Positions 37,825 through 58,436 of a stretch of 64,000 nucleotides of DNA are shown in pieces. A program made the position numbers and the translations under genes. The stretch is from Spirochaetia bacterium (GTDB lineage: Bacteria; Spirochaetota; Spirochaetia; CADAEX01): positions 1,568,001 to 1,632,000 of the forward strand of contig OY759746.1 of assembly GCA_963662795.1 (NCBI GenBank), read 5' to 3'. Every line of letters begins with the position of its first letter. The first letter of the stretch is position 1. The notes under the pieces are model-generated. The model was not told where the DNA came from, made no database searches, and saw only the letters and a program-made list of their open reading frames with translations.

Positions 37825-37840
37825 AAACGGGAGATATTAA

Positions 37841-39289: not shown

Positions 39290-40662
39290 TGGAATCCAAT
39301 CGAATTGAATATAAAAAAGAGCTGACAGTTTCTCTTGAGAAAGAAGTGGTAGCTTTTCTTAATTCCCGTGATGGCGGTGAGCTTTTTATCGGGGTGGATA
39401 ATAACGGCACTGCTTTAGGGGTAGGCAAAAGTGATCAGCTTCAGCTGGTGATAAAAGACAGAATAAAAAACAATATTCAACCTTCTGCCCTTGGGCTCTT
39501 TGATGTTGTTCTGGAAGTAAAGACTGGTAAGGAAATTATCAGAATAATCGTGGCTGGGGGGTTGGAGAAACCTTATTATCTGCGTAAATATGGCATGACA
39601 GAAAAAGGCTGCTTTATTCGGGTAGGCAGTGCCAGCGAACCTATGTCTCAGGAGATGATTGACTCGTTTTACAGCAGAAGAATCAGAAACACAATTGGGC
39701 GGATGGAGTCAACCCGGCACAATCTGACATTTGAGCAGCTTAAAATCTATTATGAAACCAGGGGACTGCATCTGGGCACCTCGTTTATGCAAAACCTTGA
39801 ACTTCTTACACCGGAAGGGAAACCCAATTTTGCCGCATATCTGCTTGCTGATGAAAATGGTGTCTCAATCCAGGTTGCCAAATACGCTGATAAGGGGAGA
39901 GTCAATCTTGTTGAGAATATTGATTTTGGCCGATGCTCTCTAGTCAAAGCCTGTAAAAACATTATGGACCGGATGAATGTGGAAAACACCATTTATACAC
40001 GGATCAGTGTACCACTGCGGGAAGAACGCCCGATGCTCAATCCGGTTGCAATGCGCGAGGCAGTTGTCAATGCAATTGTCCATAATGACTACTCCAATGG
40101 AGGCGCTCCCAGGTTTGAATTTTTTTCGGATCGTTTGGAGATAACATCATCCGGCGGATTACCTTATGGTCTTGGGATTGATGATTTCTTTGCCGGTCAT
40201 ACTGCTCCCCGTAATAAAGAGATTATGCGGGTTTTCCGTGATCTTGAAATTGTAGAACAGCTTGGTTCAGGCATACCGCGTATTTTAATAGCTTACGGAC
40301 GGGAATGTTTTCAGCTTAGTCAAAACTTTATCCGGTTAGTGTTTCCTTATGCCGTGGGTCTTGTTGAAGATGGAAAGACGCAGCAAGAGTCACAGCAAGA
40401 GTCACAGCAAGAGTCACAGCAAGAGTCACTTGAGATGCGTATTTTGAGTGTTCTCGGGCAGGATTCAAAAAGCAAAAAAGAAATTTCTGAACAATTAGGA
40501 CAAAAACAGGTTTCCGGACAATTAAATGTTGTTATCCGCCGATTGCTTGAAAATAAAATGATTGAATATACTATTCCGGATAAACCCCCAAGCCGCTTGC
40601 AAAAGTACCGTATTACCAAAAAAGGCCGTATCAGTGTAAAAAAAGAGGGCAGCGATGAATAA
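39289..40662 (+). CDS. Schlafen/AlbA_2 + HATPase_c_4-like + winged-HTH protein
   Basis: ESNRIEYK..VAFLNSRDGGELFIGVDNNG; REAVVNAIVHNDY..DRLEITSSGGL; PRN..EQLGSG; C-terminal IEYTIPDKP..RLQKYRIT. Confidence 0.8.
   Translation: MESNRIEYKKELTVSLEKEVVAFLNSRDGGELFIGVDNNGTALGVGKSDQLQLVIKDRIKNNIQPSALGLFDVVLEVKTGKEIIRIIVAGGLEKPYYLRKYGMTEKGCFIRVGSASEPMSQEMIDSFYSRRIRNTIGRMESTRHNLTFEQLKIYYETRGLHLGTSFMQNLELLTPEGKPNFAAYLLADENGVSIQVAKYADKGRVNLVENIDFGRCSLVKACKNIMDRMNVENTIYTRISVPLREERPMLNPVAMREAVVNAIVHNDYSNGGAPRFEFFSDRLEITSSGGLPYGLGIDDFFAGHTAPRNKEIMRVFRDLEIVEQLGSGIPRILIAYGRECFQLSQNFIRLVFPYAVGLVEDGKTQQESQQESQQESQQESLEMRILSVLGQDSKSKKEISEQLGQKQVSGQLNVVIRRLLENKMIEYTIPDKPPSRLQKYRITKKGRISVKKEGSDE
40381..40428 (+). 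repeat. 12-bp tandem repeat x4 (QQES)
   Basis: (CAGCAAGAGTCA)4, in frame. Confidence 0.95.
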
Positions 40663-42355
40663 GCAAAGCGCTCAATTGCTTAAAAAACACTTCGATACTG
40701 CCCTTGAAAGCCCGGATGGTATTAAAAAACTAAAGGAGCTTATCCTCACCCTTGCCATGCAGGGCAAACTGGTAAAACAGGACCCCAAAGACCAGCCGGC
40801 AAGTGAGCTTCTTAAAGAGATACAGGCGGAGAAGGAACGGCTGATTGCAGAGGGGAAGATTAAAAAGCAGAAAGAGCTGCCGCCGGTGAAGCCGGGAGAA
40901 GTACCCTATGAAGTGCCGAAGGGGTGGGAGTGGGTGAGAAATGAAGAAATAGTAACTCTTCTTGGAGATGGCATACATGGAACTCCAATATTTGATGATA
41001 ATAGTGAGTTTTTTTTTATTAACGGTAACAATCTTAATGATGGAAAAATCGAAATAAAAGAAAACACTAAACGTGTTTCCGAAAATGAATACATGAAATA
41101 CAAGAAGAACTTGAATTATAGAACTGTTTTTGTTTCAATCAACGGAACAATTGGAAATGTAGCTTTTTATAACAATGAAAAAGTAATATTAGGAAAAAGT
41201 GCATGTTACTTTAATTTGTGTTCTGATATATCAAAGGATTTTATAAAAAAAGTAATTAATAGTAAATATTTTTTAGAATATACTTTTTCTGAAGCGACTG
41301 GGACAACTATAAAAAATGTATCACTAAAAACAATGCGCGAGTTCTTGATCCCACTTCCGCCTCTGGCTGAGCAAAAACGCATTGTTGCTAAAATTGACGA
41401 ACTCATGGCACTCTGCGACAGGCTGGAAAAAAAGCTCAAAGCCAAGAGTGAAAAACTGCTCGCAGTCCACACTGCGGCAATTAACCGCTTGATGAATGCA
41501 GCTGACAAAAATGATTTTGATACATCCTGGCAGTTTATCACATCTCACTTTGACCCGCTCTACAGCGTAAAAGAAAATGTTGCAGAGCTTAAAAAAGCCA
41601 TCCTCACCCTTGCCATGCAGGGCAAACTGGTAAAGCAGGACCCCAAAGACCAGCCGGCCAGTGAACTATTAAAAGAGATACAGGCTGAGAAGGAGCGGCT
41701 CATTAAAGAAGGGAAGATTAAAAAGCAGAAAGAACTGCCGCCCATAAAGCCGGAAAAAGTACCGTATGAGATTCCTGAGGGATGGGTTTGGACGAGATTA
41801 GGGGATATGTGCTTAAAAGTATCAGATGGATTTCACCATTCTGCAAAAAAAATATCGCAAGGAATAAGATACATTTCTGCTACGCATATTAATAACGGAT
41901 GGATAGAATGGGATAGTGGTCTTTTTGTATCTGAAAAAGAATATAATGAATTATTAAAAAAGACTGACTTAAAAAAAGGGGATATATTAATAGTTAATCG
42001 TGGGGCAGGATGTGGTGATGCAGCAATAATAAATATTAATGAAAAATTCTGTTTTCAAAATGCAGCAATTATCGGTTTTACACAAAATTTATTATTTGGA
42101 TCATATCTACTAAAATATATACATAAAAGCAAAGGTTATTTCCTTGAGAAATTTATACAAGGTGGAGCACAACCAATGCTTTCAAATAAATTGCTTGCAA
42201 CACATCCGTTTCCCATCCCCCCCCTTGCTGAACAAAAACGCATTGTCGCCAAAATTGACGAACTCATGGCACTCTGCGGCAGGCTGGAAAATAAGATAGA
42301 CCAGAAAACCGCAAAGCAGACGGCTTTATTTGATGCGGTGCTGGCTGCTATATGA
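40655..42355 (+). CDS. hsdS: Type I RM specificity subunit
   Basis: Two TRDs, each flanked by PYE.P.GW.W and PPLAEQKRIVAKIDELMALC; duplicated LAMQGKLVKQDPKDQPA. Confidence 0.95.
   Translation: MNKQSAQLLKKHFDTALESPDGIKKLKELILTLAMQGKLVKQDPKDQPASELLKEIQAEKERLIAEGKIKKQKELPPVKPGEVPYEVPKGWEWVRNEEIVTLLGDGIHGTPIFDDNSEFFFINGNNLNDGKIEIKENTKRVSENEYMKYKKNLNYRTVFVSINGTIGNVAFYNNEKVILGKSACYFNLCSDISKDFIKKVINSKYFLEYTFSEATGTTIKNVSLKTMREFLIPLPPLAEQKRIVAKIDELMALCDRLEKKLKAKSEKLLAVHTAAINRLMNAADKNDFDTSWQFITSHFDPLYSVKENVAELKKAILTLAMQGKLVKQDPKDQPASELLKEIQAEKERLIKEGKIKKQKELPPIKPEKVPYEIPEGWVWTRLGDMCLKVSDGFHHSAKKISQGIRYISATHINNGWIEWDSGLFVSEKEYNELLKKTDLKKGDILIVNRGAGCGDAAIININEKFCFQNAAIIGFTQNLLFGSYLLKYIHKSKGYFLEKFIQGGAQPMLSNKLLATHPFPIPPLAEQKRIVAKIDELMALCGRLENKIDQKTAKQTALFDAVLAAI
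40742..42291 (+). repeat. Internal direct repeats of hsdS conserved regions
   Basis: 40742-40884 resembles 41600-41742; 41366-41430 resembles 42227-42291. Confidence 0.85.
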
Positions 42356-42491: not shown

Positions 42492-43223
42492 ATGAATGTT
42501 TTAATTCTTGGAGCAAGCGGCGCGACTGGCAAACAGGTAGTCCTGCAGCTTATTAAAAGAGGAATCAGTTCACGGATAGTTGTCAGGGAAAGCGCTTCTC
42601 TTCCGCAGGAAATAATTGATGCTTCGAATGTTGAAATCATCAAAGGCAGTATTACGGAATTCAGCAGTGAAAAACTTAAGGAGCTTGTGAAAGACTGCAC
42701 GGCTGTGGTATCCTGCCTCGGACACAATATTACATTTAAGGGCATGTTCGGGAAACCCCGTATGCTTGTGTATTCAACCGTAAAAAGGATATGCGGGGCA
42801 GCACAGGAAAATGGAAGTAAAAAACTGAAGTTCGTCCTTATGAGTACAACTGGCTATACAAACAGCGAAAACGGAGAAAAAAATACAACTGGGGAAAAGA
42901 TAGTTTTTTCACTGCTTAAATTACTGCTCCCGCCGCATCTGGATAATATGAAAGCCGCCGATTATCTTTTCAGAAAAATCGGAAAGGATAATGAAAAAAT
43001 AGAATGGACAGCGGTTCGGCCTGACGGATTAATTAATGAAAACACAGAGAGTAAGTACAATGTTTTTGAATCCCTGCAGAGAAGTCCGATATTCAATCCG
43101 GGACAGGTAAGCAGAATTAATGTAAGTCACTTTATGGCGGAACTGTTAACCAGTGAAGAGCTTTGGAAAAAATGGAAGTATAAAACTCCGGTTATTTATA
43201 ACGAAGAGCAGAAAGAAAAATGA
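42492..43223 (+). CDS. Atypical SDR / NAD(P)H-binding oxidoreductase
   Basis: ILGASGATG, WTAVRP, VSRINVSHF. Confidence 0.85.
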   Translation: MNVLILGASGATGKQVVLQLIKRGISSRIVVRESASLPQEIIDASNVEIIKGSITEFSSEKLKELVKDCTAVVSCLGHNITFKGMFGKPRMLVYSTVKRICGAAQENGSKKLKFVLMSTTGYTNSENGEKNTTGEKIVFSLLKLLLPPHLDNMKAADYLFRKIGKDNEKIEWTAVRPDGLINENTESKYNVFESLQRSPIFNPGQVSRINVSHFMAELLTSEELWKKWKYKTPVIYNEEQKEK

Positions 43224-43262
43224 TAAGATTGGGGAAACCAGGAGTCATAAGAAGGAGGTAAA

Positions 43263-43685
43263 ATGATTTTCGCCAATTTTCTTGCGGTATTGTTCATCCT
43301 TTTGATATCAGCGCACCTTAGCGGGGATGTTGGTTCATTCATAAATATTGACAGTGCAGTCATAGTTGCGGCTGGTTTTGTTTTCTCGTCAATAGCCCTT
43401 TCTGCAGGAAGGTTCAGCCTGCTTCTTAAGGGATTTAGTGAGATATTTAAATTCTCCTCAAATAAAACTCCAGATAATGAAATAAAAAACATGTTTTTCG
43501 GTATATCGGTTATGACAATGGGTGTCGGCATCTGTTCAACCGCGCAGGGCTTTATTTCCGGAACTTTAATAAAATCAGCGTATTCAATTTCAGAAATAAT
43601 TGTATTTTCCTCATTCACTACAATCTATAGTTTTATCCTGGTAGTTTTTATTTTGCTTCCTGTTTCATTCAGGAATATAAAATAG
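43263..43685 (+). CDS. Small membrane protein (weak MotA/TolQ-like N-terminus)
   Basis: Strong AGGAGG RBS, about 4 hydrophobic segments, SFINIDSAVIV. Confidence 0.6.
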   Translation: MIFANFLAVLFILLISAHLSGDVGSFINIDSAVIVAAGFVFSSIALSAGRFSLLLKGFSEIFKFSSNKTPDNEIKNMFFGISVMTMGVGICSTAQGFISGTLIKSAYSISEIIVFSSFTTIYSFILVVFILLPVSFRNIK

Positions 43686-43873
43686 TGAAATATATTGGAT
43701 TCTATGAATGAATAATATTATGGAAACATATAACTCCTGGCTTTATTGCTTGTTTTTATTTGACTGATGCAATATCACTTATATGTTGTTTTCCTCATCC
43801 TTTCCCGTGGAAACGATTCCCCGGGATTTCATTAGCAATCTGCAGGCTGACAATAATTAAGGAGCTTCATTTC

Positions 43874-45076
43874 ATGAGCGGCATTAAAAATATATATGGC
43901 AAACTTAACCTGCTCTCTTTCGGGATTGCCGGTTTTGTAATGTCTGCAAGAACCAGCGCTTTTTCATCAATCCGGGAAGAGTTTTCCTTAAATTATTCCA
44001 GCATTTCACTTCTTGTCCTTGTCTCGGGGATTATAATGCAGATTTCCACTTTCCTGACAGGCTATAGTTTAAGACGGTTCGGCTACAGGCTTAATACCGC
44101 AGTCTCGCTTTTGATTTTCGGTTCCTCCTTCCTCCTGATTTTTTTATCTGCCGGCTATCCGATGGTCTTTGTCTCATTCTGCATTATGCTTTTCGGGTTC
44201 GGAGCGGTTGTCCTTTCCCTCAACATGCATACAGGTTACCTTGCCGGAAAAAACAACGGGCCTGCGCTTATGAGGCTTCATCTCGGATTTTCAGTCGGCG
44301 CTCTTTTAGGGCCCAAGACAATAAGCTTTTTTATAACAAACGGAATGGACTGGCGGTTTGTCTATATCCCTGCCGCATGTCTTGTTTTTGCAATATCTGT
44401 TATTTATTTTATTCTTCCTGAAAAAAAGATGGAAATGGAAAATGAAAATGAATTATCTGAATCAGGCGTACAGGAAAAAAGTAAAGATACTTCCGCCGAC
44501 TTCAGTGTGGTTGATGGAAAAATCCTGAAAAAGGCCGTGTTTCTGTTTGTTGTTATCTTTATCGCGGGGCAGCTGTGGGAATACGGTTTTGGGACATGGT
44601 TTGTAATATTCTGCAGGCAGCACTTCAGTCTTTCAGAGATCACTTCCTCTACATATCTAACAATATTCTGGGTGTGCTTTCCCGTTAGCAGAATATCTGC
44701 CGGATATATTGTGAAGAAAACAGGGGCAGTCTCCCTGCTTGTGGTTTCGTTTATTTCCATTTTCCTGTTTGTCCTTGCGGGGTTTGTTTTTTCCGCTCCC
44801 CTGTTGTTCAGTCTGACAGATCTGTTTACGGCCCTTATTTACCCTCTCACAATGACTCTGATGCAGCAGACTCTCGGCAGGGAAAGATCCGACCTTATCG
44901 GCGTAATCAGTATGGTAGGCGGTTTTATCAACTATCTGCTTATTGCATCAGCCGGAAGCATCACGGATGTATTCGGAATTGCGGCAGGGTTCGGAAGCAC
45001 GGCGCTCTACCTGCTTGCCGGGGCCTGTGCGTCAATTATACTGGGTGTAAATATTTTATCGAAAAAAATATTATAA
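43874..45076 (+). CDS. MFS transporter (FucP-like)
   Basis: About 12 TM segments, LHLGFSVGALLGP; start at ATG 43874 after AAGGAG. Confidence 0.82.
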   Translation: MSGIKNIYGKLNLLSFGIAGFVMSARTSAFSSIREEFSLNYSSISLLVLVSGIIMQISTFLTGYSLRRFGYRLNTAVSLLIFGSSFLLIFLSAGYPMVFVSFCIMLFGFGAVVLSLNMHTGYLAGKNNGPALMRLHLGFSVGALLGPKTISFFITNGMDWRFVYIPAACLVFAISVIYFILPEKKMEMENENELSESGVQEKSKDTSADFSVVDGKILKKAVFLFVVIFIAGQLWEYGFGTWFVIFCRQHFSLSEITSSTYLTIFWVCFPVSRISAGYIVKKTGAVSLLVVSFISIFLFVLAGFVFSAPLLFSLTDLFTALIYPLTMTLMQQTLGRERSDLIGVISMVGGFINYLLIASAGSITDVFGIAAGFGSTALYLLAGACASIILGVNILSKKIL

Positions 45077-45346
45077 TTTGAATACGATAAAAGAAATGTG
45101 TAAATACTTTTTACTAAATTGAAAGGTAGTCAATATCTATCCGATTTAATATAACTGATTCATTGCTAGTTGTGGAATTCATCTGGCATTATGTTTTATC
45201 TTATTGAAAATAGTACTTTTTGTAGTTTATCCATATCCTTTTAACTTCCCGCTGCTGAAAAAATATTCAGTATTTAAACCATCACTTAAAATTTATATTT
45301 TTAATTTAGTTTTTAATGTTAATCACTGGTAGTTCAAAATATTTTG

Positions 45347-45404
45347 TTGACAATTTAGGTTTTCATGATATAATACTTATGCTGTTAACAGTTGACAGTT
45401 AACA
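45347..45404 (+). promoter_or_regulatory. Strong sigma70 promoter with downstream tandem operator
   Basis: TTGACA-16 nt-TATAAT with extended TG; (GTTRACA)x3 at 45384-45404. Confidence 0.75.
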
Positions 45405-45556
45405 AAGTAAAAGAAGAAATTAACATGCCAGTTACAATTACTTTAATGATAACATCTTTTTATTAATGGCTGTTTATGAGTTTGCAAACCTTATTGATGA
45501 TCTTAATAAATATTTAAAACAAAAATATGTTTCGGACTAAACTTATGGAGGATTGT

Positions 45557-46843
45557 ATGTCTAAAATTGTTATAAAGGATATAAAAGCAGGCGAAATAAT
45601 TGATAACAGGGGCATGCCTACCGTGCGCTCGTATGTCCGTGTAAATGATTCAGTCGCCTGGGCTGACGCGCCTAAAGGATCATCTACCGGCTCTTTTGAA
45701 GCTTTTGACCTGAGGGACGGCGGGAAAAGATACAATGGAATGGGTGTTAAAAAGGCAGTTAAAAATATTGAAGAGATAATTGCGCCTGCTTTAAGAAACC
45801 GGGAAGTATCATCATTAAATAAAATTGACAGGATAATGATTGATTTGGACGGCACGGAAAATAAATCAAAGCTGGGGGGGAATGCGATAACTGCAACATC
45901 CCTTGCCGTTGCTAAAGCTGCTGCAAAGGCTTTAGACCTGCCTCTTTATAATTATCTCAATCCGTTCGCGCATGTTCTGCCGGTCCCGCAGGCCTGTTTT
46001 ATAAACGGAGGCGTGCATGCTGACAACGGCCTGGAAACACAGGAAATGTGCGTAATGCCTGTTGGAGTCAATTCCTTTGCGGAAGCAATGGAAGTTTTAA
46101 ATGCTGTCTGGTTTTCATTAAAAGAGGTTTTAAGGAAAAATCTGGGGGGCGGGGCAAGCAATACAGGTGAAGACGGCGGATTCGCACCGCCGATTAATAA
46201 TCTTCACCAGGCAATGGATTATATCCTTGATGCTGTAAAAATTGCGTCATGCGAGGATATAGTTTTATATGGTTTTGACATGGCGGCAAGCGGTTATTTT
46301 CAAACATCAAATAACAGATATTTGTTCCAGGGAAAGGAAAGAACAAGGGAAGATATAATTGACTATTATGATGATCTTCTTGGGAAATACCCAAAGCTTG
46401 TATCCATAGAAGATCCGCTGGATGAAAATGATGTGGAAGGCTGGAGTATATTTACAAAAAAATTTCAGGACAGAATATTGATTATAGGAGATGACTTTTT
46501 TTCCACCAATATCGGCAGACTGAAAATAGGGGTAAAAAATAATGCAGGCAATGCGCTTCTTTGCAAGGTTAATCAAATCGGATCAATATCAGAAACTTTT
46601 GAGGCTGCTGGTTTTGCCCAGAGAAATAACATGTCAGTTGTCATGTCTCCGAGATCCGGTGAGACAGAAGATGATATCCTGTCAGATATAAGTGTTGCCT
46701 TAAACGCCGGGTGTTATAAAACAGGCGGAATGAGAGGAAGCGACAGGGGTTCCAATTACAACCGTTTTCTGGAAATTGAAAAAGAACTTGGAAGTGCTGC
46801 TGTTTATGCAGGAGCAGATTATTGCAGGAAAAATACTAACTAA
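45557..46843 (+). CDS. Enolase paralog with altered active site
   Basis: LDGTENKSKLGGNA, NGGVHAD, SIEDP, GDD, KVNQIG, RSGETED; variant motifs GEDGGF and SPRSG; ATG 45557 after GGAGG. Confidence 0.88.
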   Translation: MSKIVIKDIKAGEIIDNRGMPTVRSYVRVNDSVAWADAPKGSSTGSFEAFDLRDGGKRYNGMGVKKAVKNIEEIIAPALRNREVSSLNKIDRIMIDLDGTENKSKLGGNAITATSLAVAKAAAKALDLPLYNYLNPFAHVLPVPQACFINGGVHADNGLETQEMCVMPVGVNSFAEAMEVLNAVWFSLKEVLRKNLGGGASNTGEDGGFAPPINNLHQAMDYILDAVKIASCEDIVLYGFDMAASGYFQTSNNRYLFQGKERTREDIIDYYDDLLGKYPKLVSIEDPLDENDVEGWSIFTKKFQDRILIIGDDFFSTNIGRLKIGVKNNAGNALLCKVNQIGSISETFEAAGFAQRNNMSVVMSPRSGETEDDILSDISVALNAGCYKTGGMRGSDRGSNYNRFLEIEKELGSAAVYAGADYCRKNTN

Positions 46844-46856
46844 GCAGGTCTCTCAA

Positions 46857-48227
46857 ATGTATGTAAAGAACAGGGAACAGCTCCTATCCCACGGACTGGC
46901 AGAAGCCAGGGAAATGGCGGTCGAAATAATTGAAGCCTGTCTCGAAGCTGTTGATCCGTATAAGGCGGTAATAGATCAGATAAAGATAAATGATGATATA
47001 CTTTATTTTGATGAAAATAAAATTGATCTAAAAAAATTTGATAAAATATATGTGCTGGGCGCGGGAAAAGCGACATATAAAGTGGCAAGGGCAATTGATG
47101 AAATATTTTCCGGCAGAATACATCAGGGGCTTGTTGTTTTAAAAGATACCGATGAGAAAGAACTGAAGAATATCAGGATGATAAAAGGAAGACACCCGTA
47201 TCCGGATGAGAGCAGCTTTATCGCGGGAGAAGAAATAGAAAAAATAATAAAAAAAGTTAAAAAAAATGATCTGGTAATTTCTCTTATTACCGGAGGATCT
47301 TCCGCTTTATGCACAATCCCGGTGGAAGGAGTCAGCAGAAAGGATAAAATTGAAATTAATAAACTGCTTGTAACAAGCGGTGCTGATATTCTGGAAATAA
47401 ATACGGTAAGAAGACATCTTTCAAAAATAAAGGGGGGGTATTTAACCTCCTCGGTCGCCCCCGCGACTGTAATATCCTTAACAGTATCGGATGAAAAAAG
47501 AGACATATCGTGCTGGAATCATGACTGGACAGCGCCGGATAATTCAACTTTTGCAGATGCTGTAACTGTACTGAAAAAATATAAATTATGGGAATTAACA
47601 CCTGAATCCATTAAAAAGTATTTAAGAAATGGCAATAATGATAATGAAACACCCAAGAATATAACAGAAGGACAGGATATATATTATAAAATGGTGGTAA
47701 AGACAGTCGACTTATGGGAAGCCGCAAGAAGAAGGGCTTTGGAGCTGGGATTAACTCCCCAGCTATTGACAACAGTCTTAACCGGTGATTCCCTGAGTGC
47801 CGGGCGTTTCCTTGCATCTGTAGGAATATCCGCGAAAATAAATAATCTGCCGTTGAGCCCTCCATGCATGTTTTTCGTTACCGGCGAAACTTCCGTAAGG
47901 CTGGAAAGCAGTAAAAAATACGGAACCGGGGGCGCTGACCAGGAACTATCATTGGGAGGTTGTATAGATTTAACGGAAGATGAGAAAAATATACTGATCT
48001 GTTCAGTTGATACGGACGGTACTGACGGGCCGACTGATATTGCCGGTGGGATGACAGATTATTCAACAATAAACAGGGTCAGCAAAGCCGGTACTGATTT
48101 TTATGAACTGCTTGATTCACACAGTTCTTCTGAAATATTAAAGGCTTCAGGGGATTTTATTTTAACCGGTACGACCGGGACAAATGTAAATTCTTTTTCT
48201 TTTGTGATTGTTTTAAAGGACGCGTAA
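46857..48227 (+). CDS. Glycerate 2-kinase-like protein (DUF4147 + MOFRL)
   Basis: GAGKA, HPYPDE, GGSSAL, INTVRRHLSKIKGG, DTDGTDGPT, TGTNVN. Confidence 0.85.
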   Translation: MYVKNREQLLSHGLAEAREMAVEIIEACLEAVDPYKAVIDQIKINDDILYFDENKIDLKKFDKIYVLGAGKATYKVARAIDEIFSGRIHQGLVVLKDTDEKELKNIRMIKGRHPYPDESSFIAGEEIEKIIKKVKKNDLVISLITGGSSALCTIPVEGVSRKDKIEINKLLVTSGADILEINTVRRHLSKIKGGYLTSSVAPATVISLTVSDEKRDISCWNHDWTAPDNSTFADAVTVLKKYKLWELTPESIKKYLRNGNNDNETPKNITEGQDIYYKMVVKTVDLWEAARRRALELGLTPQLLTTVLTGDSLSAGRFLASVGISAKINNLPLSPPCMFFVTGETSVRLESSKKYGTGGADQELSLGGCIDLTEDEKNILICSVDTDGTDGPTDIAGGMTDYSTINRVSKAGTDFYELLDSHSSSEILKASGDFILTGTTGTNVNSFSFVIVLKDA

Positions 48228-48246
48228 TCAAAACAAGGAATATAAA

Positions 48247-49503
48247 ATGGATTTACCTGAAATATATAAAATTAAACAGATAATTAACCATCCCTTTATT
48301 GCTGATATTGATAAGGAAATAAGAAAGGAAATCAAGAAAATTGATTTAAGCAAAAAGGAAGGAAAGACAGTTGCGATTACCTGCGGCAGCAGAGGTATAA
48401 CTGACTATTTTTCCATTGTAAAATCTTTAGCTGATGTATTAAAAGAAAATTCAATGAAGCCGTTTATTGTTCCTGCCATGGGAAGTCACGGAGGAGGAAC
48501 GGCGGAAGGACAAAAAAAACTTCTGCACAATCTTGGTTTATCAGAAAAGGAATTAAAAATACCGATAAAATCATCTATGGAAGTTGTCAAAATCGGTGAA
48601 ACGGATGATGTTCCGGTTTATATAGATAAAACAGCAGCTGAAGCCGATTTTATTGTTTTATTTCATATCATAAAGGATCATCCGGATTTTTACCATAATT
48701 CATACGGAACAGGATTTCAGAAGATGCTGACAATCGGTCTTGGAAAATACAAAGGAGCCGATTGTTATCACAGGGCAATTATTTCACACGGCTTTGTAAA
48801 AATTATCAATGATGTTTCGAAGGTCGTTATTGAAAAAACAAATATTCTATTTGCTCTTGGAGTTGTTCAAAACGCATACGGCCGGACGGCAAAAATGGAA
48901 ATCTGCGAAAAAGATAAAATAACAGAAACAGAAAAAAAGCTCTTCAGGCTTGCATTGAAATATACAATGAAAATCCCGTTCGATGAATTTGATATTTTAA
49001 TTATTGATGAAATGGGCAAGGAGTACAGCGGAGCAGGATTTGAAACAAAGATTGTCGGAAGAATTGGTATGCCCTTATTAAGCAGAGAGCCGAAAAAACC
49101 AAAAATAAAACGGATTGTTGTCTGCGATATCACAAAGAAATCCGAGGGGAATGCGATAGGAATCGGAAATGCTGATTTCATAACAAAAAAACTTTATGAT
49201 AAAATAGACTTTAACTCGATGTATATAAACGCAATTGCCGCTTCTGAGGTTGAAGTCGCCAGAATCCCGGTCGTTTTGGAAAATGACAGAAAAGCCGTTG
49301 AAACTGCTATGGCAACAATTGGAAATATTGAAAGTAAAAATATTAAGCTTGTCAGAATAAAAAACACAAAAGAAATGGAGTATCTGTATATTTCAAAAGC
49401 ACTGTTAAAAGAAGTAAATGATTTAAAAAGAAAAACTGAAATAGAAATAATCAAGGAAGATTGTATGTTGCTTGATGAAGCTGATACCCTGGCAGAATTC
49501 TGA
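48247..49503 (+). CDS. Lactate-racemase-domain (DUF2088/LarA-like) protein
   Basis: VAITCGSRGI, PAMGSHGGGTAEGQ, KMLTIGLGK, DEMGK..SG, GNAIGIG. Confidence 0.75.
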   Translation: MDLPEIYKIKQIINHPFIADIDKEIRKEIKKIDLSKKEGKTVAITCGSRGITDYFSIVKSLADVLKENSMKPFIVPAMGSHGGGTAEGQKKLLHNLGLSEKELKIPIKSSMEVVKIGETDDVPVYIDKTAAEADFIVLFHIIKDHPDFYHNSYGTGFQKMLTIGLGKYKGADCYHRAIISHGFVKIINDVSKVVIEKTNILFALGVVQNAYGRTAKMEICEKDKITETEKKLFRLALKYTMKIPFDEFDILIIDEMGKEYSGAGFETKIVGRIGMPLLSREPKKPKIKRIVVCDITKKSEGNAIGIGNADFITKKLYDKIDFNSMYINAIAASEVEVARIPVVLENDRKAVETAMATIGNIESKNIKLVRIKNTKEMEYLYISKALLKEVNDLKRKTEIEIIKEDCMLLDEADTLAEF

Positions 49504-49511
49504 TCAATAAA

Positions 49512-50177
49512 TCAATCATTTTTTAACATGTATTCTTTGATATGCTGAAGTCCTTTTTCCAAATGTTTTTCATATATCTTTTTCGCCTGGTTTATATCAA
49601 TATTTTTAATAGAGTTAAAGATCAATAAGTGCTCTTCAATATTTTCTTTTTTTGCCGGCATGATTAATACATTCTTGTCCATGGCAATACACAGGCTGAG
49701 TTGACATTCCAGATCTTCCCAGATTTTTATAAGCCGTTTGTTGTTTGTTAATTCACAGATTGTTTTGTGGAATTCAAGATCTTTTGATACATGCCCGTTT
49801 ATTGATTTTTGTTTTTTCATTTCGTCTAATATTTTTGATAATTTGTTTAAAATATCCTCATTTATGTTTTTAATAATTTCTTCAACCGCAAGAATTTCTA
49901 TGGCATTTCTTAATTTGAAAATTTCCTCGATATCCCTGATGGTAAATTTTACCACAAATGTTCCTTTATACGGAATTGTATTAACAAGACCTTCTTTTTC
50001 AAGATAACGAAAAGCCTCTCTAATCGGATAACGGCTTATATTCATTTCACGTGATAATCTTGCTTCAGAAATTTTTTCACCGGGTTTTATCCTGCCGCTG
50101 ATAATCGCGCTGCGGATTTCCATTGCGACATCACTGGTTAAAGGTTCTCTTTTTTGGGAATTAAATATATTTGCCAT
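49512..50177 (-). CDS. GntR family (FCD) transcriptional regulator
   Basis: IISGRIKPGEKISEA..SRYPIREA..LEKEGLV; DLEFH, EEHL. Confidence 0.92.
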   Translation of the reverse strand: MANIFNSQKREPLTSDVAMEIRSAIISGRIKPGEKISEARLSREMNISRYPIREAFRYLEKEGLVNTIPYKGTFVVKFTIRDIEEIFKLRNAIEILAVEEIIKNINEDILNKLSKILDEMKKQKSINGHVSKDLEFHKTICELTNNKRLIKIWEDLECQLSLCIAMDKNVLIMPAKKENIEEHLLIFNSIKNIDINQAKKIYEKHLEKGLQHIKEYMLKND

Positions 50178-50365
50178 GTTTTGCAATCCATTATTATGAA
50201 AATATTAAATTAACAGGAAATCTTTAATATTATGATATATTAAAAGATTTTATTCTATAGACTGTAATCTGGAAAAATACTTTTATTGCGGATAATACGG
50301 TGTTGGTTTTTACACTGCAATATCAGGCCCGGGAATACAAGAGATAATATATCTGATAATATCCA

Positions 50366-51322
50366 TCAGCTTCTGATTTTGTTTAAAAAAGCCGCCGCCC
50401 GGCTGTAATTCATCCCTTTGGTAAATTCAAAAATCGTGTCCTCACGGTTTCCTTCCGGAAGGGAGGCTTTGACAATAGGGTTTTTTATATAAAAGAGTAT
50501 GTCCTTTATGCTGATTCCGTTTTCAGCGGCATAGGCAAGAAAAGATAGTTCCGTAAAATCTTTTTTCCCGGCATTATACAGATATTCAATACCGTCCTGC
50601 ACCTGCTCAAACGGGCTTTTGGTATAGTGAAAAACCCTTGCAACAGGTTTTTTTTGAGCGATTATGCCGTTCTTTTTAAGTGTTGTTTCCATATCAGATA
50701 TCATTTCTGTTATTTCCTTCCATGGAAAATAAATTCTGAAAAGCATAACCGCTATGTCTGTAAGGTAATTATTCTTGTGAAGGAGGGCCGGGATATCATA
50801 GTTTATAATATAATATTCTTTGTGCTTCTTGATTGAATTACCGTATATTGTCATAAAATCTTCCGGTTCAACCCAGATATTAAACAGCCCTTCCTCATCA
50901 AGGGCGAATTTTTTCATGGCAGTATAGGGGTTTATTATTTTTGCTTTTTTAAAACTGCAGCCGTAGTGGTCTTCAAACATTTTGATCATGTTTGCTGTGA
51001 AATATCTCTTCCCTTTTTCCGCTGCCTTTATTTTGTTGGCGTAATGGTGTTCTATAATATGTTTTGAGTTTATGTAATCACCCGGGTAATTTGCGAGGTA
51101 TACAAGCCTGACATTTTCCGCATATTCCCGGTTTCCCTTTATTACTTTTAAAAGCGAGCTTTCAACCTCAACGCCGTTTGTCTCAGGCCGCAGATAGATA
51201 AAAACATCATTTGTTTTCCCTGTCGGATCCGGTCCAGGATAAGGTACCAGTACCGACGGGTTATGCACTATCCTTTTTTTGCGCGGCTTTTTTATCAAAA
51301 CTTCTTTCCGTACTGTTTCCAT
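50366..51322 (-). CDS. Hypothetical protein, possible divergent nucleoside-diphosphate-kinase fold
   Basis: NDVFIYLRP, IIEHHY, FHYTKSPFE resemble atypical NDK-like proteins; overlaps acyl-CoA synthetase end. Confidence 0.45.
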   Translation of the reverse strand: METVRKEVLIKKPRKKRIVHNPSVLVPYPGPDPTGKTNDVFIYLRPETNGVEVESSLLKVIKGNREYAENVRLVYLANYPGDYINSKHIIEHHYANKIKAAEKGKRYFTANMIKMFEDHYGCSFKKAKIINPYTAMKKFALDEEGLFNIWVEPEDFMTIYGNSIKKHKEYYIINYDIPALLHKNNYLTDIAVMLFRIYFPWKEITEMISDMETTLKKNGIIAQKKPVARVFHYTKSPFEQVQDGIEYLYNAGKKDFTELSFLAYAAENGISIKDILFYIKNPIVKASLPEGNREDTIFEFTKGMNYSRAAAFLNKIRS

Positions 51323-53367
51323 ATCTTGAAAGCTATATTCATCGGTTCAATCATCGGGACAGTATATGTGTGAAAATCTTTTTTATATAAATAATCCCTT
51401 ATACTGAATACATATTGTGAAAATCCTCTCGGAGATACAATCATCGGTTTTGTCATTGAATGCTTCAGGTCAACAAGTCTGTCGGCAAGGTATTCGGAAA
51501 GATAGGGTACCTGTAGATAAAGCGCGGTTATTATACCGTCTACATTCGGGTCCCTGTCTATGATTTTCAAGGCTTCAAGCAGTCTGTCGTCATCGCAGTC
51601 GCCAAGCAAATCTATCGGGTTAGCTCCGAATATATGTTTTGCCTTTATCAGGTCACGAAGGGCTGCCTTTGTCCCGTCACTGAAAACAGCAAGCTTCATC
51701 CCATAGGCGGTTATCTGGTCTGCAATAAGTATTCCGGCTCCTCCTCCGACGCTGACAACGGCAATCCTGTCGTTGTGCGCCATGGGGTTTGTTGTAAGGA
51801 GTGATAATATATTTACCAGGATCTTGGGGTCTTCGGTGAGGGCCTCAATCATATAAAACCCCGCCTGTCTGCAACATGCCCTGAATGCCTCCACATTGCC
51901 GGCAAGGGTTGCTGTATGGGAAAGGGTCGCCTCTGCGCCCCCGCCGACTCCTCCCTTGATTATAAGAACAGGTTTTTTCTTTGTAACCTTTTTTCCGATT
52001 TCAAGGAAATGCTTGCCGTTCTTTATTCCTTCAAGGTATATAGCGATTACAGAAATATTGGGATCATCTCCCATGCTGTCGAGAATTTCAGGAAGGCCTA
52101 CACCGCTTGCGTTTCCTATTGAAACAAGTTTCCCGAGTTTCATGTTATCAGCTTTCATCATTTCAATGATTTCAAGACCCAGCCCTCCGCTTTGCGAGAT
52201 AATTCCGATGCCGTTCGGCTCCTCAATTATGCTGGTCCTGTGCTCGGGGATAAAAAAAGTGTTCATTCCCGAAAAATTGTTTATTGCGCCAAGACAGTTG
52301 GGCCCTACATACGCCACTCCGTACCGGCGGCTTATTTCGACAAGTCTGTCTTCCAGGTCTTTTCTTCCCACTTCCGCAAATCCGTCGCTGAGAATTATTG
52401 CTCCTTTCCCCCCTTTCTTGCAGAACTCTTCAAATTCCCTTACAGTCCCTTCCGCGTTGATTATAAACACCCCTACGTCCGGCGCTTCGGGAAGGTCCCC
52501 GATATTTTTATAGCATTTAAGGCCCATTATATAATCACGCCTGGGATTTATCGGATATAGTCTTTTAATTCTCATGCAGTTTTTAAGAATAATACCGCCC
52601 ATTGTTCCGGGGCGGGATGCGCCCAGCACTGCCATTGACTCGGGGTTAAGCAGAGAGTTAAGGCTGCGTCTTATCTTGTCCGGAATTTCAGGTTCCACTT
52701 CAATAAATACAGGATCTCCTTTTATAACCCTCGCATCGACAAGCGAATACCCGTTTTCATAAAGGACTATCGGGTTGAGGTCTATTTCAAGTATGTCCCT
52801 GTTTTCGGCCATGAGGGCTGATATATTAACGGCAATGGAAATTATTGCCTTTTTATCAAGAGGCTTTCCCCTGAACCCGTCAATTATCTGTCCGGCCCTG
52901 GTGAGAGAGAGCATCTCGTCAACATCTTTTTTCGACAAAAGACCTATCCCCGGAGCTGTGTCTTTTAAAAGCTCTACATATTTTCCTCCGCTTCCGGCAA
53001 TTATCAGCGGCCCGAAAACCGGGTCCTGATGCGCACCGACAAGCACCTCAAAACCGCCCGGGGCCATTTTCTGAAGCAGCAGTTCTTCCTGTTTCCTGTA
53101 ACCAGCTTTGGAGATGTTTCTGTTTATATCCGAGAGTGCTTTTTCAAGTTCATCCCTGTTTCTGATTCCGAGAATAACTGCACCGATATCCGACTTATGA
53201 ACTATTTCTTCAGAATTGGTTTTAAGTACAACAGGATACCCGAGCTTTTCGGCAGCTGCGCCAAGAGAACTGATATCTGCTTTACAGACTTCCCCCGAAA
53301 CAGTGATGTTGTATTTTTCAAGTAATTTTTTTGCTTCTGAAAAACTGATTTGTTTTCTCTCGGACAT
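51295..53367 (-). CDS. ADP-forming acyl-CoA synthetase (ACD), fused beta-alpha order
   Basis: N-terminal ATP-grasp (YPVVLK, HKSDIGAV, DPVFGP, DLNP), then CoA-binding domain, GPNCLG, SQSGG, SHT phospho-His. Confidence 0.88.
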   Translation of the reverse strand: MSERKQISFSEAKKLLEKYNITVSGEVCKADISSLGAAAEKLGYPVVLKTNSEEIVHKSDIGAVILGIRNRDELEKALSDINRNISKAGYRKQEELLLQKMAPGGFEVLVGAHQDPVFGPLIIAGSGGKYVELLKDTAPGIGLLSKKDVDEMLSLTRAGQIIDGFRGKPLDKKAIISIAVNISALMAENRDILEIDLNPIVLYENGYSLVDARVIKGDPVFIEVEPEIPDKIRRSLNSLLNPESMAVLGASRPGTMGGIILKNCMRIKRLYPINPRRDYIMGLKCYKNIGDLPEAPDVGVFIINAEGTVREFEEFCKKGGKGAIILSDGFAEVGRKDLEDRLVEISRRYGVAYVGPNCLGAINNFSGMNTFFIPEHRTSIIEEPNGIGIISQSGGLGLEIIEMMKADNMKLGKLVSIGNASGVGLPEILDSMGDDPNISVIAIYLEGIKNGKHFLEIGKKVTKKKPVLIIKGGVGGGAEATLSHTATLAGNVEAFRACCRQAGFYMIEALTEDPKILVNILSLLTTNPMAHNDRIAVVSVGGGAGILIADQITAYGMKLAVFSDGTKAALRDLIKAKHIFGANPIDLLGDCDDDRLLEALKIIDRDPNVDGIITALYLQVPYLSEYLADRLVDLKHSMTKPMIVSPRGFSQYVFSIRDYLYKKDFHTYTVPMIEPMNIAFKIWKQYGKKF

Positions 53368-53565: not shown

Positions 53566-54567
53566 ATGACCGTAACCATAAAAGATATTGCAGAAAAGGC
53601 AGGTGTATCATACGCCACAGTCTCAAGAGCGTTAAACTATAAATACGGTGTAAACCCCTCGACCCGCCGGCAGATCCTTGAAATAGCGTCCAGCATGAAT
53701 TACAGCCCCAATGCGATAGCCCGGGGACTTGTCAAAAAGCAGACACATACAATCGGCCTTATTATTCCTGATATAACAAATCCTTTTTTCCCGGAGGTTG
53801 CCCGCGGTGTTGAGGATATGTCCGAAAAAATGGGATACAGCATTTTTTTGTGCAATTCAAACTGGGATAAAACCAAGGAAAACCGTTATGTAAAACTCCT
53901 GATTGAAAAAAGGGTTGACGGACTGATTCTTGCCCCGTCTGCAAGTATTATAACTGAAGAGGACAGGCAGATATATTCACGCCTTCCGGTTGTCCTTATG
54001 AGCGGCGTACAGAGCGGATGCGGGACCGCTTCTGTTGTAGTTGACAATGTAAAAGGCGGGTTTATCGCAGGTAAGTATCTTATTGAAAAGGGGAGAAAAA
54101 AACTCTGCTATATAGGGGGAGCTGAAGATTCATTTTCAGTTAAGGAGAGATTTGAAGGGTTTTTTCAGGCAGCAGAAAGCAGTTTTTCAGTCAGCCTTTC
54201 ACCCGACCTTGTGGGGTTCGGTGATTACAGGCAGAAAAGCGGGTACAGGATAATGAAAGAGCTCCTTGAAAGCAGGAATATTCCTGATGCTGTTTTTGCG
54301 TCAAACGACCTTCTTGCGATCGGAGTTATTCAGGCAATAAGGGCATCAGGGCTTAAAGTGCCTGAAGACATTTCCGTGATAGGTTTTGACAATATTGCGG
54401 CGGCAGGATTCGGAGAGGTTGAACTTACAACCATTGAGCACCCCAAGTACAGAATGGGCGAACTTGCCGCCGGAATGCTTCTTGAAAAAATTGACCTGAA
54501 GCCGGAAATGCAGGAAAATAAAAGAGTGGTCCTTGAACCTGAACTTATTATAAGGAGAACAGCCTGA
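53566..54567 (+). CDS. LacI family regulator of the inositol cluster
   Basis: TIKDIAEKAGVSYATVSRALN, YSPNAIARGL, PEDISVIGFDN. Confidence 0.95.
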   Translation: MTVTIKDIAEKAGVSYATVSRALNYKYGVNPSTRRQILEIASSMNYSPNAIARGLVKKQTHTIGLIIPDITNPFFPEVARGVEDMSEKMGYSIFLCNSNWDKTKENRYVKLLIEKRVDGLILAPSASIITEEDRQIYSRLPVVLMSGVQSGCGTASVVVDNVKGGFIAGKYLIEKGRKKLCYIGGAEDSFSVKERFEGFFQAAESSFSVSLSPDLVGFGDYRQKSGYRIMKELLESRNIPDAVFASNDLLAIGVIQAIRASGLKVPEDISVIGFDNIAAAGFGEVELTTIEHPKYRMGELAAGMLLEKIDLKPEMQENKRVVLEPELIIRRTA

Positions 54568-54690
54568 TATAGAGGTATTTAAGGATGCACTTCCGGAATG
54601 GCAGTGTCTTAAGCGGTGATGCCGTGAATAGAAAAAAACCTTAAGGCTGATTCTCTTTTTTTAAACTAAATAAAAAAACTGGAGGAAAAG

Positions 54691-55485
54691 ATGGTTATCA
54701 AACAGAACACGGATTTCCCTGAAGGGTATACATCTGTAACTGAACTTGACGGAAAGTTCAGCGAAATGAAAATGGATTTTGGCATTCTTAAAATCAGGAA
54801 AGGGAAAAGCGAAACCTTTAAAGAGAAAAAGGAGAGAGCATATCTCCTTATGACAGGAAAAATTGTATTTGAATGGGAAGGGAAAAAACAGGAAGCATCC
54901 AGAAAGGATTTCTTCAGGGAAAGTCCATATGTCCTTCATGTTCCCGAAAATGTTGAAGTGAAAATTACCGCTCTTGAGGACTGTGAGATCGCAATCCAGA
55001 AAGTTAAAAATACCAGCATTTTTGAGAGCCGTCTTCACACACCTGATGAATGCATTTCGGCGGAATTCGGTAAAGGGACTCTCGGTGAAACATCAACCAG
55101 AATTGTAAGAACCGTTTTTGATGCGGCGACCTCACCAATGTCCGGAATGGTAATGGGTGAGGTAATAAACTTTCCGGGGAAATGGTCAAGCTACCCGCCT
55201 CATGCCCATGCACAGCCTGAAATTTACCACTACAGGTTTTATCCGAAACAGGGTTTTGGTTTTTCAATGCTTGATGACGATGCCTATGTCGTTAAAAACG
55301 GATACACCTGTACGCTGGACCCTGACAAGGTCCACTCCCAGGCTTCAGGCCCCGGATACGCGATGTATTATATATGGATGATTCCCCATATCCCTGAGCA
55401 GAAGTGGTCAAGGGAAACTACATACTTTCACAAAGACCACAAATGGCTGCTTGACGGCGGCGCCAAAATATGGCCGGAGGCATGA
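54691..55485 (+). CDS. iolB: 5-deoxy-glucuronate isomerase
   Basis: GKWSSYPPH, EIYHYRF, GYAMYYIW; iol context. Confidence 0.88.
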   Translation: MVIKQNTDFPEGYTSVTELDGKFSEMKMDFGILKIRKGKSETFKEKKERAYLLMTGKIVFEWEGKKQEASRKDFFRESPYVLHVPENVEVKITALEDCEIAIQKVKNTSIFESRLHTPDECISAEFGKGTLGETSTRIVRTVFDAATSPMSGMVMGEVINFPGKWSSYPPHAHAQPEIYHYRFYPKQGFGFSMLDDDAYVVKNGYTCTLDPDKVHSQASGPGYAMYYIWMIPHIPEQKWSRETTYFHKDHKWLLDGGAKIWPEA

Positions 55486-55591
55486 ACAGCGGGCAGGTCA
55501 AACGTGCCGGCAGGATATTTCCTGACGCAAAGGCTTCGTAAATTCAAACATTACGAATAACGAAATATAAATTATGGAATGGAGGGAATAA

Positions 55592-57526: not shown

Positions 57527-57542
57527 ACATAAGGAAAAAAAT

Positions 57543-58436
57543 ATGGATAAAAAGAAAGTCAAACTTGCCATGGCCCCGATCGGCTGGACAAACGATGACA
57601 TGCCTGACCTTGGAAGTGAAAACACATTCGAGCAGTGCGTAAGTGAAATGGCGCTTTCAGGATTTACAGGAAGCGAAGTGGGAAATAAGTATCCCAAAAA
57701 CCCGAAAGTACTGAAACAGTATCTTGACCCGCGGGGAATTCAGATTTGCAACCAGTGGTTCAGTTCATTTCTTACAACTGAAAGCCTTTCTTCAGTTAAG
57801 AAAGCGTTCAACGCTCAGCTTAAATTCCTTGAAGCTATGGGAGCATCGGTAATTGGACCTGCTGAACAGGGAAAAAGCATTCAAGGCAAACTCGATGTTC
57901 CTGTTTTCGCGGGCAAACCGACATTCACTGATGATGAATGGAAAAAACTTACAAGCGGTCTTAACGAGCTGGGTAAAATCGCGAAGGAAAAGGGTTTCAG
58001 GCTCTGTTATCACCATCACATGGGAACAGGTGTTCAGACCCTTGAGGAGACAGACAGGCTGATGGAAAATACAGACCCCTCATATGTCTACCTTCTTTTT
58101 GATTCCGGGCATTTTACGTTTTCAGGTGAAGATCCGGTAGCGGCACTTAAAAAACACATTAAAAGGGTAGGCCATGTCCACCTTAAAGATGTAAGACCCA
58201 ATGTGCTTAAAGCTGTAAAATCCAAAAAAATGAGTTTTCTTGACGCGGTCAGGGCCGGAGCTTTTACAATTCCAGGCGATGGATGTATAGATTTTCCTTC
58301 AATTTTTAAAGTACTTGAAGAGGGTAAATACAAGGGCTGGATGGTAGTTGAAGCGGAACAGGATCCCGCAAAAGCCAATCCGTTTGAATATGCTCTAAAG
58401 GCAAGAAAATATATAAGGGAAAATGCGGGTATATAA
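57543..58436 (+). CDS. iolE: myo-inosose-2 dehydratase
   Basis: [33 protein letters not shown]. Confidence 0.95.

Follow-up and report, generated by a model that had tools for sequence, protein, structure and literature searches.

Why would a bacterium that already encodes a canonical enolase keep a second copy with exchanged catalytic residues? The question is raised by an operon of a Spirochaetia bacterium (assembly GCA_963662795.1, contig OY759746.1), found in the stretch of 64,000 nucleotides between positions 1,568,001 and 1,632,000, hereafter the window. Here, three closely spaced genes for an enolase-family protein, a MOFRL-type kinase and a LarA-superfamily isomerase stand behind a strong promoter with a probable (GTTRACA)x3 operator and meet a convergent GntR gene. 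An earlier note on this DNA had described this arrangement, and all of its elements are present. The catalytic residues of enolase are textbook invariants, and to our knowledge the enolase family proper is treated as single-function throughout life. Our reading, held with modest confidence, is that the operon represents a conserved, substrate-inducible catabolic route for a 2-hydroxy acid other than glycerate, running through a kinase and an enolase-type lyase. The features on which this rests are listed below; the first two enzymes are called the variant enolase and the variant kinase, and the third LarA22.

45346-45374, plus strand: sigma-70-type promoter (-35 TTGACA at 45347-45352, 16-nt spacer, -10 TATAAT at 45369-45374)
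45384-45404, plus strand: three tandem GTTRACA heptads, a putative GntR operator over the transcription start region
45405-45556, plus strand: 5′ leader of ~150 nt, with GGAGG at 45547-45551
45557-46843, plus strand: variant enolase, 428 aa, enolase family (Pfam Enolase_N and Enolase_C), ATG after GGAGG
46857-48227, plus strand: variant kinase, 456 aa, DUF4147 and MOFRL domains (Pfam), WNxDW subfamily
48247-49503, plus strand: LarA22, 418 aa, LarA-superfamily nickel-pincer-cofactor isomerase, NCBIfam group 22 (NF052515)
49512-50186, minus strand: GntR-family regulator with an FCD ligand domain, convergent with the operon (alternative ATG at 50177)
43760-45076, plus strand: transporter of the major facilitator superfamily (MFS; Pfam MFS_1), 5′ of the promoter and outside it

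An enolase clade with exchanged catalytic residues

The variant enolase has the two-domain architecture of its family (PF03952, 1e-45; PF00113, 7e-86) and, at 428 aa, the same length as its closest relative, P0001. With canonical enolase (TIGR01060) it shares fold, length, three metal ligands, both catalytic lysines, the loop histidine, the QE pair and the RSGETED phosphate site. The Mg2+ ligands (Asp, Glu, Asp) and the catalytic lysines (KVNQ, KTG) show no change in the window protein or in any of the 31 aligned variant enolases. It differs from canonical enolase by a Glu-Asp swap, the lost SHRSG histidine, a lid-loop Ala replaced by Ser, R397G and further fixed sites. The retained metal ligands and KVNQ lysine, and the motifs GEDGG for GDEGG, SPRSG for SHRSG and PKGSSTG for PSGASTG, are read directly in the sequence and alignment, as the earlier note had claimed.

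These exchanges define a large clade. Among the best 120 relatives listed from a protein search space of 5.8 billion, 119 carry the Glu-Asp swap and lack the SHRSG histidine (E 81, V 36, P 2); the exception is one 703-aa protein with canonical motifs. We compared 147 variant rows (119 database clusters, 27 loci and the window, some loci possibly duplicating clusters) with 47 canonical rows from spirochaetes, Desulfobacterota, Patescibacteria and marine metagenomes, numbering sites by the canonical enolase of the same genome. All 147 variant rows are switched at D204E, E205D, A41S, S15N, M146Q and R397G, while M166C is found in 146 and N148C in 139. H368 is replaced throughout (E 98, V 46, P 3). 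The canonical residue is held at D204 in 46/47, E205 in 47/47, A41 in 46/47, R397 in 47/47 and H368 in 47/47 canonical rows, and in no fewer than 44/47 at any switched site. In yeast enolase, Glu211 of GDEGG is the general acid. Its column, Glu in 47/47 canonical rows, is Asp in 147/147 variant rows, with Glu one position earlier; the SHRSG column, His in 47/47 canonical rows, is Pro in the window protein.

In a tree of 38 rows, the variant enolases make up one clade (Shimodaira-Hasegawa-like approximate likelihood-ratio test (SH-aLRT) 100), which a long stem separates from the canonical ones. Within it, the window protein and its nearest relatives, P0001 (90%) and P0002 (68%), form a Pro-type trio, the sister group of 27 Desulfobacterota sequences. 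The window lineage combines Pro at the lost-histidine site with a lysine in the lid loop (PKGSSTG). P0002 and the kinase relative P0243 come from the same source, each with a longest contig of 8445 bp, which hints that their genes adjoin. A scan of metagenome contigs with the window enolase returned only canonical enolases, at ≤46% identity. The closest solved structure, the Methanocaldococcus (M.) jannaschii enolase 2pa6 (1.6e-114), has the canonical residues, and therefore no member of the variant clade has been solved; several differences between the variant and bacterial enolases are common to this archaeal protein.

On the NCBIfam eno model TIGR01060 the variant enolase scores 462 bits, above the cut-off of 300, and the canonical enolase of the genome 723 bits, 261 more. 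The protein is a member of the enolase fold family but lacks two defining features of a 2-phosphoglycerate (2-PG) dehydratase, so we would not file it as a phosphopyruvate hydratase.

The partner enzymes and their control region

The second gene product is a MOFRL-family kinase (PF13660 (DUF4147), 6e-64; PF05161 (MOFRL), 3e-25) with PDB matches 1x3l (2.4e-82) and 2b8n (8e-69), and it aligns over its full length with the solved glycerate 2-kinases PH0495 (2.4e-82) and TM1585. Its start at 46857 was set by alignment with 27 relatives; the longer frame from 46776 given in the earlier note overlaps the enolase gene and was dropped. The variant kinase shares with MOFRL class II glycerate 2-kinases the fold and the motifs GAGKAT, SD, GGxxQE and DTDGTDGP, and it contains the family motif D-x(0,2)-G-x(0,1)-D-[GP]-x(4)-[APS]-[ACDGST], described in the available portion of PMC2063504, as DTDGTDGPTDIAG. 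After SD, however, it has WNxDW where ordinary enzymes have IASGP or YITGP: the window segment reads EKRDISCWNHDW, against VVGD..AIASGP in the solved enzymes. WxxDW replaces IASGP in 100 of the 120 best database relatives, the next clade having DYITGPT, and 26 of the 28 kinases adjoining variant enolases in other genomes read WN[AT]DW.

The kinase changes proposed earlier thus fare unequally. SDEKRD..CWNHDW is present and belongs to the clade-wide WxxDW type, with Arg and His in SDEKRD..WNHDW particular to the window lineage. GGADQE is also present, and its N-to-D change is confined to that lineage (2 of the 120 best relatives). NVNS occurs in the solved glycerate kinase PH0495 and is not a change, and the Arg of GGRNQE, which is Pro in PH0495, is not diagnostic. 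The variant kinase misses the NCBIfam glycerate 2-kinase equivalogs (224 vs 550 and 164 vs 670 bits); these models are lineage-specific, so the misses are weak evidence.

LarA22 scores 459 bits on NF052515 (nickel-pincer nucleotide (NPN)-dependent isomerase group 22; cut-off 400). A sequence search of the PDB at E<=0.01 gave no match. The best 15 Foldseek PDB matches listed for its AlphaFold (AF2) model (predicted local distance difference test (pLDDT) 83.4) are all LarA-family structures (E 7e-12 to 2e-8), 9eia, 7s91, 6d6z, 4nar and 5huq among them. LarA22 therefore shares the fold of the known racemases and epimerases of lactate, malate, glycerate, 2,3-dihydroxybutyrate and gluconate, but it is only 12-18% identical to the solved LarAs and falls into NCBIfam group 22. 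When it is aligned with the genome's own lactate-racemase-type LarA, at only 12-18% identity, the candidates for two catalytic histidines, the tethering lysine and the nickel histidine correspond (His/His/Lys/His); they lie in AMGSHG, IKDH, GFQKM and CYH and are invariant in 18/18 group-22 rows. Because both histidines appear to be kept, LarA22 probably does not belong to the His-to-Asn single-His subfamily of PMC12611868. A search for LarB and LarC found both in the genome (282.7 and 219.6 bits), 2 kb apart. LarA homologues invert C2 of 2-hydroxy acids, according to the available sections of PMC7583248 and PMC11770544, and the accessible parts of the literature on LarA homologues assign no substrate to group 22.

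The window genome holds eight Lar_N homologues. Another LarA homologue lies at 5043-9329 of the window with a large permease of a tripartite ATP-independent periplasmic (TRAP) transporter and an amidohydrolase (437 bits; lactate-racemase cut-off 460), and a further LarA stands directly before the window at C1:1562809. A third LarA22 is found in a sugar-acid-like cluster at G000:C1:1830287-1840566 (L017), together with a GntR, an FGGY kinase, a Zn-dehydrogenase, a TRAP transporter, a short-chain dehydrogenase/reductase (SDR), a DapA-like aldolase and a D-2-hydroxyacid dehydrogenase.

Intergenic gaps of 13 nt (enolase-kinase), 19 nt (kinase-LarA22) and 8 nt (LarA22-GntR) leave little space between the four genes. 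The promoter at 45347-45374 agrees with the consensus at 12 of 12 positions, has TG preceding the -10 element and is the sole perfect sigma-70 match in 43400-50500. The tandem heptads, GTTAACA GTTGACA GTTAACA, begin 10 nt past the -10 element, and a fourth, GTTGACA at 45346-45352, overlaps the -35 element. The tandem GTTRACAGTTRACA occurs once in the whole 3.93-Mb genome; the window shows no enrichment of the single 8-mer TGTTRACA (5 observed vs 3.5 expected). GTTGACA lies 40-95 nt 5′ of the variant enolase gene in 9 of 24 Desulfobacterota loci, a heptad that itself includes the -35 consensus. An Rfam scan of 43000-51500 at E<=1, leader included, returned no match. The convergent gene product has an N-terminal GntR winged helix (PF00392, 3e-16) and a C-terminal FCD domain (PF07729, 5e-18), and no NCBIfam equivalog reached its cut-off. 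The MFS transporter upstream, which matches NCBIfam only weakly (PgtP subfamily, 30 bits) and is not conserved across related loci, is a possible importer for the module, its membership being uncertain.

Distribution of the module and coexisting ordinary enzymes

A scan with peptide patterns specific to the variant enolase over one genome per species (185,579 species) gave 32 loci, mostly in Desulfobacterales or Desulfobacula records, others under broader labels, and all but one labelled as metagenome-assembled genomes (MAGs). Neighbours were scored by tblastn with the window proteins. The variant kinase (43-50% identity) is encoded directly 3′ of the variant enolase in 29/32 loci; LarA22 (42-49%) is present in 16/32 and a GntR homologue (32-47%) in 16/32, which bears out the predicted co-occurrence of the variant enolase with the variant kinase and a LarA-like gene. 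The three loci without the kinase comprise two contigs that end within 300 nt and L035, where a GntR takes its place; the MAG of L035 has the complete pair at L032. Both loci of this MAG encode Val-type enolases, only L032 with the kinase. At L049 (1321-2575), the variant enolase is read in two frames (154 + 290 aa), a frameshift or assembly error.

The residue at the lost-histidine site tracks the kinase motif: Glu goes with WNTDW, Val mostly with WNADW and Pro with WNHDW, which is consistent with inheritance as a module. Pairwise ratios of nonsynonymous to synonymous substitution rates (dN/dS; Nei-Gojobori, NG86) are 0.063-0.137 for the enolase (9 pairs), 0.082-0.141 for the kinase (8) and 0.054-0.135 for LarA22 (5). 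Values far below 1 for all three genes exclude the unconserved drift that had been considered as an alternative outcome. Fixation of the changes throughout a large clade, together with purifying selection on the genes, takes the pattern beyond chance; the substitutions in the variant enolase and kinase are not drift. Both proteins are members of conserved, unstudied subfamilies in which the active site has been rebuilt.

The variant pair coexists with ordinary enzymes. The window genome has a separate canonical enolase at C1:2893529-2894803 (723 bits), which excludes the outcome that the variant is its only enolase, and in six of six genomes (the window genome and five Desulfobacterota) a canonical enolase (664-723 bits) stands beside the variant (462-510 bits) as its second copy. 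Each of the six also has, besides the variant kinase, an ordinary MOFRL kinase, and the two types score 92-100 and 133-146 bits, respectively, with the Pfam model; five genomes searched for a class I glycerate kinase had none. Because canonical enolase and ordinary kinase are present in all six, the variant pair is a parallel system, not the housekeeping route.

A paralogous cluster of the window genome at G000:C1:2626921-2632956 (L016 8925-14956, minus strand) encodes a TRAP transporter, an Fe-alcohol dehydrogenase, a LarA (474 bits on the lactate-racemase model), a second LarA22, an ordinary MOFRL kinase and a 224-aa Asp/Glu-racemase-like protein; it contains no enolase. The ordinary kinase therefore needs no private enolase, and so the strict pairing of variant enolase and kinase argues against 2-PG as their shared intermediate.

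These paralogues bear on a serious competing account, glycerate salvage, which we nevertheless consider fairly unlikely: LarA22 would racemise L- and D-glycerate, the variant kinase would make 2-PG, and the variant enolase would be a co-expressed isozyme whose changes tune kinetics or regulation. The enolase scores above the eno equivalog cut-off, and some LarA homologues racemise glycerate, as the accessible part of PMC11770544 reports. All characterised MOFRL kinases phosphorylate the 2-hydroxyl and make 2-PG, as far as the available text of PMC2063504 goes. The varied neighbours of the module (IlvD/Edd dehydratases, glycine-betaine-type methyltransferases, aminotransferases) could also all converge on glycerate. 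However, glycerate salvage leaves several observations to be explained. All 147 variant rows have replaced the catalytic-acid Glu and the His, which 47 canonical rows from distant phyla keep without exception; the six genomes already have canonical enolase and ordinary MOFRL kinase; the second LarA22 cluster, with its ordinary kinase, has no enolase; and the 29/32 pairing is hard to explain if the intermediate is 2-PG.

The host belongs to Spirochaetia, and one contig of 3.93 Mb holds its genome; among named organisms, its canonical enolase is most similar to those of Spirochaetia/Spirochaetaceae MAGs (87-97%) and of Salinispira pacifica (82%). None of 40 relatives, from genus to class, has a counterpart of the variant kinase, the best match being of the ordinary type at 36% identity. 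In the order of one Desulfobacula genome, the variant enolase occurs in 7 of 201 sampled genomes, and the 3′ part of the module has the lowest G+C of its neighbourhood (0.336). We read the kinase, and by extension the whole cluster, as an accessory island in the spirochaete.

A rare, accessory cluster could also serve non-catabolic ends, such as the biosynthesis of a modified enolpyruvyl compound or other chemistry. Enolase homologues act in phosphinothricin biosynthesis, and in secondary metabolism proteins of this family can take 2-substituted glycerates; both this and the scarcity of the cluster would fit such a role. We nevertheless regard it as very improbable: a GntR/FCD repressor, a strong promoter and nearby transporters are the usual layout of a catabolic operon, and no nonribosomal peptide synthetase (NRPS), phosphonate or nucleotidyl-transferase gene was seen among 85 neighbouring open reading frames (ORFs).

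On its upstream side, the module adjoins a type I restriction-modification system (window 35416-42355) whose R subunit is of the EcoAI family and whose specificity subunit has duplicated halves; it also includes a methyltransferase-like gene. This neighbour is in keeping with an accessory island. Downstream, window 50366-53367 (minus strand) holds a 318-aa ORF without Pfam or NCBIfam matches and a 690-aa gene resembling ADP-forming acyl-CoA synthetases, the end of which shares 28 nt with the ORF; on the archaeal acetate-CoA ligase model this gene scores 410 bits (cut-off 1200). A LacI-type regulator, the myo-inositol catabolism gene IolD (931 bits) and more sugar genes follow at 53566-62121, apparently unrelated to the module.

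Neighbouring genes, the substrate and the meaning of the module

In Desulfobacterota, the neighbouring genes suggest N-methylated amines rather than sugar acids. MttB-family methyltransferase genes lie within 8 kb in 14/32 loci, often as immediate neighbours and in at least 5 different arrangements, accompanied by corrinoid proteins, MtaA/URO-D-type methyltransferases, a dimethylamine methyltransferase and a class III aminotransferase. A CaiT-like betaine/choline/carnitine transporter (BCCT) is encoded inside the operon at 2 loci, and two dimethylglycine-dehydrogenase-like genes are found at 1 locus. The adjacency of MttB is weakened as proof of an amine substrate by copy number: with 15-34 copies in three of the five genomes checked, chance alone would place some of them beside the module, by a rough estimate ~10%, and the other two genomes with a variant enolase and the window genome hold none. 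Nor do the neighbouring MttB-like proteins name a substrate, since they resemble no solved methyltransferase closely (200-337 bits). Other loci have an IlvD/Edd dehydratase (3), a PrpD-like protein (2) or a peptide-type ATP-binding cassette (ABC) transporter (3), and transporters near the module elsewhere are of the BCCT, TRAP or ABC type.

Several of the MttB-family and dimethylamine-methyltransferase genes are split at the expected pyrrolysine (TAG): L022 4821-6305, L028 959-4086 and L030 2750-5971, and L022 922-2349, L030 179-1561 and L036 1330-2721. The split ORFs measure 327 + 141-162 aa and 348-363 + 103-109 aa, and many MttB matches in the genomes carry a single in-frame TAG.

The residues gained by the two enzymes bear on the same question. 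Most members gain acidic ones, Glu at the lost-histidine site of the enolase and Asn plus Asp within WNxDW of the kinase, which would suit a cationic C3 substituent. The window lineage, with Pro and a lid-loop Lys in its enolase and Arg and His in its kinase, may have a different substrate. Beyond the trio and its regulator nothing is conserved at related loci, so the product probably needs no special enzyme, which favours phosphoenolpyruvate (PEP) or an enol phosphate that pyruvate kinase can use. Together with the methylated and quaternary-amine neighbours, the absence of a conserved downstream enzyme favours a 3-substituted lactate that yields PEP itself.

The earlier note had proposed another substrate: a C3-substituted glycerate, such as erythronate or threonate, 2,3-dihydroxybutyrate or tartrate, from which water is eliminated to give a substituted PEP analogue. 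Its notion of a new route module with coordinated, clade-wide active-site changes holds, but the C4 acids themselves we regard as unlikely. Replacement of the His by smaller or other residues, and of the Glu by the shorter Asp, possibly makes room at C3. LarA homologues epimerise 2,3-dihydroxybutyrates and tartrate, according to the portion of PMC11770544 available. An IlvD/Edd dehydratase is encoded directly 5′ of the variant enolase in 3/32 loci, and the basic residues of the window lineage (the Lys of PKGSSTG; Arg and His of SDEKRD..WNHDW) would suit the second carboxylate of tartrate. On the other hand, the module lacks a conserved neighbour, such as an aldolase or decarboxylase, that would process a C4 enol phosphate or 2-keto-3-deoxy acid; the commonest replacement of the His is Glu (98/147), unfavourable beside a carboxylate; and the recurrent Desulfobacterota neighbours are amine methyltransferases rather than sugar-acid enzymes.

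In the mechanism we prefer, a kinase followed by an enolase-type lyase, every catalytic step and the target of the regulator are inferred, the order of the steps from family chemistry. LarA22, with its nickel-pincer cofactor, would equilibrate the configuration at C2, and the variant kinase would phosphorylate the 2-hydroxyl at the expense of ATP. The variant enolase would then bind the 2-phospho acid through its retained two-Mg2+ site, the KVNQ lysine would take the C2 proton, and the C3 substituent would be expelled from the rebuilt pocket, with its general-acid Glu turned to Asp, Glu one position earlier, the SHRSG histidine lost and the lid-loop Ala turned to Ser. The elimination would leave an enol phosphate. 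Since the module has no further conserved enzyme, this is most likely PEP, from which pyruvate kinase would recover ATP. The GntR/FCD protein probably acts at the GTTRACA repeats to repress the promoter, and the substrate or its phosphate ester would relieve the repression.

A bolder version of this route is that the enolase acts as a lyase for a non-hydroxyl C3 substituent and, with the variant kinase, converts isoserine-type 3-ammonio-2-hydroxypropanoates, N-methylated and betaine forms included, to PEP and (methyl)amine. We offer this tentatively, as quite unlikely in this exact form. The Glu, Val and Pro sub-clades would then perhaps expel different substituents, the Pro/Lys type of the spirochaete an anionic or neutral one. 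ComA offers a precedent, interconverting PEP and a 3-substituted 2-phospholactate by adding or eliminating a non-hydroxyl C3 group, although it belongs to a different protein family and is biosynthetic. A ComA-type sulfonate leaving group fits the variant enolase poorly, whose pocket gains acidic residues. Accordingly, 3-sulfolactate giving PEP and sulfite was ranked low, on the acidic gains in both enzymes and the absence of an NIR_SIR sulfite reductase from the window genome, and carnitine with elimination of a 3-phosphate was ruled out, the 2-phosphate-binding RSGETED site being unchanged.

Several points weigh against a substrate other than glycerate. Since the enolase passes the eno equivalog cut-off, it may have 2-PG activity. 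The switched sites, which we take to correspond to yeast Glu211, His373 and Ala38 on the C3-hydroxyl side of the substrate, are placed there by assumption. Contact of WNxDW with the substrate is likewise presumed. LarA22 and GntR are found in only half of the loci, where many contigs are short and both may be undercounted, and the heterogeneous neighbourhoods could equally suit a hub metabolite such as glycerate.

Set beside known systems, the module has the logic of the non-phosphorylative Entner-Doudoroff branch and the serine cycle, 2-phosphorylation followed by elimination, as the available portion of PMC2063504 describes them. Ahead of this would come C2 inversion of the LarA type (PMC7583248, PMC11770544). 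It differs in that its enzymes form distinct sub-clades with altered pocket residues, the ordinary enzymes coexisting. Tartrate and glucarate routes belong to the same known class, a MOFRL class II glycerate 2-kinase followed by enolase. A full-text literature search found no description of either variant subfamily; supplementary tables of LarA neighbourhoods lay outside that search.

Named database entries call these proteins 'phosphopyruvate hydratase', 'enolase' or 'glycerate 2-kinase', and metabolic reconstructions of Desulfobacterota and of the spirochaete therefore probably miscount them. The module gives the orphan LarA group 22 a concrete, testable context, and its promoter, operator and regulator form a defined set for finding the inducer. 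The spirochaete is the most practical starting point, its genome being a single contig, whereas the other hosts are draft assemblies labelled MAG or uncultured. The isoserine-type route, if true, would be ATP-neutral with Mg2+ as its sole cofactor and would link quaternary-amine osmolytes directly to glycolysis, the freed amines feeding the adjacent trimethylamine and dimethylamine methyltransferases of Desulfobacterota. The module probably feeds a hydroxy acid into central metabolism, and if its substrate does differ from glycerate, the variant clade would be a second function in the enolase family and a new entry point into PEP.

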